Positions 3,639-4,997 of a stretch of 8,665 nucleotides of DNA are shown piece by piece. Location of the stretch: assembly GCF_003334355.1 (NCBI RefSeq), contig NZ_QOWP01000061.1. One strand, given 5' to 3'. Origin of the DNA: Escherichia coli. Lineage in GTDB: Bacteria > Pseudomonadota > Gammaproteobacteria > Enterobacterales > Enterobacteriaceae. The translations under genes and the position numbers were made by a program. The notes under the pieces are model-generated. The model did not search any database. It saw only the letters and a list, made by a program, of their open reading frames with translations, and was not told the DNA's origin. Positions within the stretch are counted from its first letter, which is position 1; every line of letters begins with the position of its first letter.

Positions 3639-4997
3639 ATGAAGGCAAAAGCGATATTACTCGCCTCTGTCCTGCTCGTGGGTTGCCAGAGTACCGGCAA
3701 CGTTCAACAGCACGCACAGAGCCTTTCTGCAGCTGGTCAAGGGGAAGCAGCAAAGTTTACAAGTCAGGCACGATGGATGGACGATGGGACGTCTATCGCG
3801 CCAGATGGTGACTTGTGGGCTTTCATTGGCGACGAGCTAAAGATGGGAATTCCGGAAAATGACCGGATTCGCGAACAGAAACAGAAATATTTACGCAATA
3901 AGAGCTATCTCCACGATGTAACTTTACGGGCAGAGCCGTATATGTACTGGATAGCAGGGCAAGTTAAAAAACGTAACATGCCTATGGAACTGGTACTACT
4001 ACCCATAGTGGAGAGCGCTTTTGATCCTCACGCAACGTCTGGCGCCAATGCCGCAGGCATCTGGCAGATCATTCCGAGCACGGGGCGCAATTATGGTTTG
4101 AAACAGACCCGCAATTATGACGCGCGTCGCGATGTTGTTGCTTCAACAACTGCCGCGCTGAATATGATGCAGCGTCTGAACAAAATGTTTGACGGCGACT
4201 GGCTTCTGACCGTAGCGGCTTATAACAGCGGCGAAGGTCGGGTCATGAAGGCAATTAAAACGAACAAAGCGCGTGGGAAATCCACGGACTTCTGGTCGTT
4301 ACCGTTGCCGCAGGAAACGAAGCAGTACGTGCCTAAAATGCTGGCATTGAGTGATATTCTCAAAAACAGCAAGCGTTATGGCGTACGTCTGCCAACGACC
4401 GATGAAAGCCGTGCTCTGGCGCGTGTGCACCTGAGCAGCCCGGTTGAAATGGCGAAGGTAGCAGATATGGCGGGGATTTCCGTCAGCAAGCTGAAGACAT
4501 TCAACGCTGGCGTAAAAGGCTCCACGCTGGGCGCAAGTGGCCCGCAGTACGTGATGGTGCCAAAGAAGCATGCAGATCAACTGCGTGAATCTCTGGCTTC
4601 AGGCGAAATTGCTGCTGTACAGTCGACGCTGGTTGCCGACAATACGCCGCTTAACAGCCGTGTTTACACCGTACGCTCTGGCGACACGCTTTCAAGTATC
4701 GCTTCACGTCTCGGCGTAAGCACCAAAGATTTGCAGCAGTGGAACAAACTGCGCGGATCTAAGCTGAAGCCAGGCCAAAGTTTGACGATTGGTGCAGGCA
4801 GTAGCGCACAGCGACTGGCAAACAACAGCGATAGCATTACGTATCGTGTGCGCAAAGGCGATTCGCTTTCAAGCATTGCTAAACGCCACGGCGTGAACAT
4901 CAAAGATGTGATGCGCTGGAACAGCGACACTGCGAATCTGCAACCAGGCGATAAGCTGACGTTGTTTGTGAAAAACAACAACATGCCAGATTCCTGA
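3639..4997 (+). CDS. mltD: Membrane-bound lytic murein transglycosylase D (lipoprotein, two C-terminal LysM domains)
   Basis: 452-aa ORF. N-terminus MKAKAILLASVLLVGCQ has a lipobox (LVGC). Transglycosylase core follows, then two LysM-like repeats (YTVRSGDTLSSIASRLGV... and YRVRKGDSLSSIAKRHGV...). Confidence 0.9.
   Translation: MKAKAILLASVLLVGCQSTGNVQQHAQSLSAAGQGEAAKFTSQARWMDDGTSIAPDGDLWAFIGDELKMGIPENDRIREQKQKYLRNKSYLHDVTLRAEPYMYWIAGQVKKRNMPMELVLLPIVESAFDPHATSGANAAGIWQIIPSTGRNYGLKQTRNYDARRDVVASTTAALNMMQRLNKMFDGDWLLTVAAYNSGEGRVMKAIKTNKARGKSTDFWSLPLPQETKQYVPKMLALSDILKNSKRYGVRLPTTDESRALARVHLSSPVEMAKVADMAGISVSKLKTFNAGVKGSTLGASGPQYVMVPKKHADQLRESLASGEIAAVQSTLVADNTPLNSRVYTVRSGDTLSSIASRLGVSTKDLQQWNKLRGSKLKPGQSLTIGAGSSAQRLANNSDSITYRVRKGDSLSSIAKRHGVNIKDVMRWNSDTANLQPGDKLTLFVKNNNMPDS

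Follow-up and report, generated by a model that had tools for sequence, protein, structure and literature searches.

The tandem LysM modules at the 3' end of Escherichia coli mltD are very probably encoded by an old, diverged and non-recombinogenic direct repeat

The imperfect direct repeat near the 3' end of mltD in Escherichia coli is, with high confidence, the coding sequence of the two canonical C-terminal LysM modules of MltD, and we take it with the same confidence to be old, diverged and non-recombinogenic. The LysM pair of E. coli MltD is already known and is textbook annotation. The useful result is a negative and quantitative one: in E. coli the LysM repeat does not generate structural variation, and the pair can leave lists of candidate contingency or module-shuffling loci.

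The window, by which we mean the whole stretch of 8,665 nucleotides that was analysed, is E. coli K-12-type DNA. Positions 415-8665 matched E. coli K-12 BW25113 at 99.976% identity (2 mismatches in 8,251 nt), and the genes lie in the order aspV, dnaQ, rnhA, yafS, gloB, mltD, yafE, yafD, yafC, dkgB. The gloB-mltD-yafE synteny is identical in the window and in K-12, and the difference from K-12 is confined to the left end of the window, where an IS1 adjoins aspV. The mltD gene is 100% identical to that of BW25113 over 1,359 nt, so that the sequence and architecture of the gene are the same as in K-12 and nothing differs. Its product matched the NCBIfam equivalog NF008050 'murein transglycosylase D' with 886.8 bits against a cut-off of 508, over the full length of the protein (residues 1-452 against model positions 1-457 of 457). 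By these matches the ORF at 3639-4997 is identified as mltD, MltD being a family 1D lytic transglycosylase. The features of the gene and of its 3' flank are listed below.

3639..4997, + strand: gene mltD, encoding 452 aa and a stop; the product is lytic transglycosylase D, an outer-membrane lipoprotein (ORF list, K-12 identity, NCBIfam)
3675..3686, + strand: lipobox LVGC, residues 13-16 (read from the sequence, without a dedicated lipoprotein predictor)
3942..4286, + strand: SLT catalytic domain, residues 102-216 (Pfam PF01464, E 3.2e-32)
4416..4565, + strand: predicted degenerate 'cryptic' LysM-fold module, residues ~260-309 (hhalign, AF2, Foldseek)
4665..4790, + strand: canonical LysM module 1 (unit 1), residues 343-384 (Pfam PF01476, E 1.1e-15)
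4791..4841, + strand: 17-residue linker GAGSSAQRLANNSDSIT between the canonical modules (low complexity)
4842..4964, + strand: canonical LysM module 2 (unit 2), residues 402-442 (Pfam PF01476, E 1.3e-11)
5011..5041, + strand: candidate hairpin terminator, a 12-bp stem followed by a T-run (consensus scan only)

The catalytic residue Glu125 is present in the motif VESAFDP; its role is taken from published work in which the E125A and E125K mutants were inactive (PMC10931528). MltD is an outer-membrane lipoprotein (PMC11327851, PMC10931528) whose architecture in E. coli has been described as a transglycosylase domain followed by two C-terminal LysM repeats (PMC10931528). Loss of the LysM domains severely impairs MltD in vivo, and the NlpI-Prc protease acts on MltD as a substrate (PMC10931528).

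The original prediction, made from the letters of the DNA, had placed tandem LysM modules at the 3' end of mltD, and this was borne out by the NF008050 match, the identity with K-12 and two separate PF01476 matches, each of which spans positions 1-42 of the 43-position model. Both peptides that it quoted are encoded exactly as written in the plus-strand ORF. The units, described there as about 45 aa long and about 170 bp apart, span 42 and 41 residues in the Pfam matches and 48 in the construct used for NMR, and their starts lie 177 nt apart, with the register changing to 174 nt after a one-codon indel. Unit 2 lies inside residues 398-445, the stretch that matches PDB entry 1E0G at 100% identity. 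The entry is an NMR structure attributed in the literature to the LysM domain of E. coli MltD (Bateman & Bycroft 2000, cited in PMC10931528), and through this identity unit 2 has the beta-alpha-alpha-beta fold. Unit 1 aligned to LysM2 in the crystal structures of P. aeruginosa MltD (PaMltD; 8RHE/8RHF), and by that alignment it would adopt the beta-alpha-alpha-beta fold as well.

By BLASTP, units 1 and 2 were identical at 23 of 46 residues (50%, E 5e-14). Their DNA was 65% identical over 123 codon-aligned nucleotides and 74% identical in an ungapped 76-nt core (4671-4746 against 4848-4923), a value reached in none of 20,000 mononucleotide shuffles. The dispersed, imperfect direct repeat is therefore significant at both the protein and the DNA level, and the outcome that the original prediction had named as refuting, a lack of significant nucleotide self-similarity, did not occur. 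Identity between the units at the first, second and third codon positions was 28, 29 and 23 of 41, respectively. Third positions were thus the least conserved, a pattern of protein-level constraint.

This pattern also bears on whether the repeat could reflect some feature other than MltD, such as an antisense ORF or a structured RNA. An ORF of 118 aa does run antisense across the whole LysM region (4664-5020, minus strand), but the similarity follows the plus frame, LysM profiles and a solved structure fit both units, and RefSeq annotates mltD alone at the LysM region. An Rfam scan of the window returned two tRNAs and nothing else. We put the chance of an origin outside MltD as vanishingly small; the antisense ORF probably arises as a side effect of sense-strand codon composition.

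The original prediction went further and regarded the repeat as a potential site of in-frame module gain or loss. On this reading the units form a recombinogenic direct repeat, and E. coli populations would vary the number of modules, and hence the binding valency, in frame. The significant self-similarity of the DNA speaks for it, but no exact in-register stretch shared by the units exceeded 10 nt (CGCTTTCAAG, at 4687 and 4864). The whole of mltD contains four unrelated 10-nt repeats and none longer; among 300 codon-shuffled versions of the gene the modal longest repeat was 10 nt, and at least 10 nt was found in 202. A block of this size is what chance provides in mltD, and it falls below the minimum of 23-27 bp (MEPS) given for RecA/RecBC recombination (PMC12074656). 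Being shorter than the MEPS and set in interrupted similarity, the stretch would be too short for noticeable unequal recombination.

Tandem Repeats Finder (TRF) reported no array in positions 4400-5050, since the repeat is too diverged and is present in two copies only. The positive control was a metagenomic MltD homologue with nine LysM modules (L083), in which the program found an array with a 210-nt period and a score of 746; the 192-nt copies in this gene were 83% identical, and it holds a 26-nt exact repeat. Because the program picks up that array, a young array in mltD would have been detected. The homologue thus has a tandem array at the level of the DNA, whereas in the E. coli pair shared blocks reach 10 nt at most. 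An Acidihalobacter homologue (P0243), with units 96% identical, had been considered as the DNA control; no record of it was found, and the metagenomic gene was used instead.

Copy number in E. coli was surveyed with a 358-nt query covering the LysM region. The query matched 5,425 of 5,426 genomes, in one place each and with at least 80% coverage, in a survey that took in complete genomes and would miss rare variants in draft assemblies. Thirty genome rows were sampled, and all 30 spanned exactly 358 nt. Loss of a unit would have lowered the coverage to about 55% and gain of a unit would have added an extra place, so that either event would have been revealed. The top 120 protein clusters (85% identity or higher) contained no MltD variant of 393 aa or 511 aa, and no one-module variant. 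Beyond E. coli, all 80 species loci from the Enterobacteriaceae encoded an MltD of 452-457 aa, and two units were verified by motif in 79 of 81 genes (the 80 loci and the window). Two genes (L071 and L081) were missed by the strict motif, and their proteins are full-length. A hotspot of module gain or loss in E. coli is not supported by these counts; the copy number is fixed at two.

The complete genomes included two oddities. In one of the 5,426 the mltD match was absent altogether. In strain MY504 (NZ_AP026902.1), the match to mltD begins only at nt 258 and the record has another place, which points to an interruption of the gene toward its 5' end.

One sequence had the appearance of a natural module loss, a 418-aa MltD without LysM2 (P0019). 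This candidate was rejected, as the shortened protein results from a frameshift caused by a 1-nt deletion. The deletion lies in the TAT codon of Tyr402, at about position 4203 of contig L001 (window 4842-4844), and the frame runs into ...ITIVCAKAIRFQALLNATA and a stop. The allele was found in a single Logan contig (SRR24837524), in which yafC is split too. The frameshift may be a sequencing error, and either way it is not a product of recombination.

Small in-frame indels do happen in mltD, though away from the LysM pair. In the MltD of one Salmonella (P0017, 463 aa) the 8 residues EGRVMRAI are duplicated in tandem and in frame within the catalytic domain (equivalent to window 4233-4256), and a metagenomic MltD of 442 aa (P0089) is without the residues IAGQVKKRNM (equivalent to window 3951-3980). 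In-frame duplications elsewhere in the gene, such as that in Salmonella, count in favor of a repeat that recombines.

The wider family also offers support for a recombinogenic repeat. LysM modules were counted with an HMM built iteratively from the units, in the 150 best representatives of 50%-identity clusters together with the E. coli query. The number per MltD homologue lay between 0 and 12; the commonest value was 3 (74 proteins), and 15 proteins had 2. Neighbouring units were 91-98% identical in protein in some homologues, and some combine near-identical units with an array that TRF detects. Lengths and module numbers of representative proteins were as follows.

Lonsdalea MltD: 462 aa, 2 canonical LysM modules
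Plesiomonas MltD: 514 aa, 3 canonical LysM modules
Aeromonas MltD: 517 aa, 3 canonical LysM modules
Hamiltonella defensa (symbiont) MltD: 411 aa, 1 canonical LysM module
P. aeruginosa MltD: 534 aa, 3 canonical LysM modules and 1 cryptic (PMC11327851)

Comparison of length and copy number, which the original prediction had proposed as its check, gave a divided result: in the sampled Enterobacteriaceae the length stays within 452-457 aa and the copy number at two, and the number of modules is variable in the family at large. Gain and loss of modules are real over deep time and ongoing where units are near-identical, with the enterobacterial pair apparently old and frozen. LysM number in the MltD family is plastic only in lineages whose units are still nearly identical. 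For E. coli itself the recombinogenic reading is largely refuted, and we consider it very unlikely in view of the chance-length block and of a copy number that was unchanged in 5,425 E. coli genomes and 80 enterobacterial loci, together with the lack of concerted evolution described below. The accompanying statement, that copy number would affect peptidoglycan-binding valency, agrees with the literature (PMC4083421, PMC10931528).

Gene conversion between the units, that is, concerted evolution acting at least in the Escherichia lineage, could also maintain similarity of the DNA. This explanation was prompted by an excess over expectation. Resampling of codons for the two peptides gave an expected identity of 53.4 ± 2.9%, and the 65% seen in E. 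coli was reached in 0 of 20,000 resamples. The Escherichia clade also had the highest values in the family, with 63-68% identity between the units and in-register runs of up to 13 nt. Comparison among genomes argued against conversion. Identity of unit 1 to unit 2 within a genome had a median of 56% (range 49-68%, 79 genomes) and the median between species was 56% too, with the same range, while orthologous units across the Enterobacteriaceae were 78% (unit 1) and 83% (unit 2) identical in nucleotides. These distributions imply that all unit 1 sequences would stand apart from all unit 2 sequences. In the other genera the consensus sequences already share 62.6% identity with each other, and the changes specific to E. 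coli, 14 toward identity and 11 away from it, were scattered and outlined no conversion tract. On the strength of the 79-genome comparison and the count of changes toward and away, gene conversion was rejected and is, in our estimate, most improbable; the excess similarity in E. coli has the look of drift and not of a converted tract. A minor conversion long ago in the Escherichia lineage would, strictly speaking, still be conceivable.

In the reading that we prefer, of an old and diverged pair, the two modules would have arisen by an intragenic duplication that predates the Enterobacteriaceae. Since then the units would have evolved independently, without gene conversion, and the similarity that remains in the DNA would reflect common ancestry and shared protein constraint. 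From the literature, lipid-anchored MltD would carry its two mobile LysM modules as flexibly tethered anchors. The modules would bind GlcNAc-containing glycan strands roughly additively, in keeping with the general binding of LysM to such glycans (PMC4083421), and would deliver the catalytic domain to the sacculus as well as offer peptidoglycan to the SLT active site. The linker GAGSSAQRLANNSDSIT is comparable to the flexible linkers of PaMltD (PMC11327851). AtlA of Enterococcus faecalis, with six LysM modules, resembles MltD in its tandem modules with low-complexity linkers; it has been described as beads on a string, with binding that rises with the number of modules (PMC4083421). The modules of AtlA are 65-100% similar to each other (PMC4083421), whereas protein identity within the E. 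coli MltD pair is about 50%.

Residues ~260-309, upstream of the repeat as originally described, are predicted to form a third, much older and strongly diverged copy. Pfam gave no match at residues 260-309. A profile of the region built from 144 homologues was aligned by hhalign with the LysM-unit profile at a probability of 91% (E 1e-6), and an AlphaFold2 model of residues 256-318 had a pLDDT of 85 and a beta-alpha-alpha-beta topology. Foldseek ranked P. aeruginosa MltD (8RHE) first for this model, which superposed on LysM1 of that protein at TMq 0.83 and rmsd 1.2 A; next came genuine LysM domains (4UZ2, Ecp6, AtlA, YkuD and CERK1) at TMq 0.5-0.6 and probability 0.8-0.9, with E > 0.1. Because the E values against genuine LysM domains were non-significant, the fold assignment rests jointly on 8RHE, the hhalign result and the predicted topology. 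Residues ~260-309 aligned to LysM1 of PaMltD (279-326), and for that protein a LysM fold that had not been predicted, packed on the catalytic domain, has been suggested as a hallmark of family 1D (PMC11327851). A cryptic module in E. coli MltD agrees with this published work and is not new. Placed immediately downstream of the catalytic domain and predicted to pack on it, the module would belong structurally to the catalytic body. The models suggest that E. coli MltD consists of a catalytic domain, one cryptic and two canonical LysM modules, and that it should be regarded as a protein with three LysM-fold modules, in line with the P. aeruginosa crystal structure.

P. aeruginosa MltD (PA1812; 8RHE/8RHF/8RHI; family 1D) was homologous to the E. 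coli protein over residues 64-384 (E 3.7e-74), and both have the same order of catalytic domain, cryptic LysM and mobile canonical LysM modules on linkers. The two proteins differ in number and anchoring: PaMltD, a protein of 534 aa with an inner-membrane anchor, has three mobile canonical modules and four LysM folds (PMC11327851), whereas E. coli MltD has two canonical modules and three folds in 452 aa and is an outer-membrane lipoprotein. We attempted to assign the E. coli units to particular units of the three-LysM homologues by best pairwise score. The result was ambiguous, because domains of 45 aa carry too little signal. For either E. coli unit the last unit was the commonest best match (41 of 74 three-unit proteins).

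One mobile module may have been lost in the enterobacterial lineage from an ancestor with three. As a tentative scheme, which we think possible but rather doubtful, successive duplications would have led from the cryptic module at 260-309 to LysM1 and then to LysM2, the canonical pair being the young end of the series. The enterobacterial form with two modules would have arisen by loss of one mobile module from a gammaproteobacterial ancestor with three, and a further loss would have followed in the symbiont Hamiltonella. The three-module form is seen today in Plesiomonas, Aeromonas and Pseudomonas. If the scheme is true, the number of modules would track envelope geometry, for example outer- versus inner-membrane anchoring, and what is new would be the evolutionary polarity and the link to anchoring only, the cryptic module having already been published for PaMltD.

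Several other features were noted in the window. The hairpin at 5011-5041 is flanked by an A-run and a T-run and lies between the convergent mltD and yafE genes, where it could terminate transcription in both directions. yafE (5045-5668, minus strand) is of the K-12 type and encodes 207 aa. In another E. coli contig (L001), YafE has 256 aa, with 221 nt extra at the junction near 5629-5653; the extra segment is flanked by the imperfect short repeat CAGCG[A/C]CAAA...GCCCTG. A deletion in K-12-type strains appears to have taken the 5' end of yafE together with the yafD-yafE spacer.

At the right end, the second tRNA (8593-8665, minus strand) is cut by the end of the window; in the K-12 record it is a tRNA-Asp beside the 5S rRNA. 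At the left end, positions 1-414 are a copy of IS1 with an insA-like ORF (84-359, minus strand) and the IS1 terminal repeat TCATACACTAAATCAGTAAGTTGGCAGCATCACC at 381-414. The IS1 abuts aspV (tRNA-Asp, 590-663, minus strand) at the spot where K-12 has yafT. Among the matches listed, the junction of IS1 and aspV was matched in one piece by two complete E. coli genomes only, those of strains PSS-12 (99.9%) and LR-24 (95.9%).
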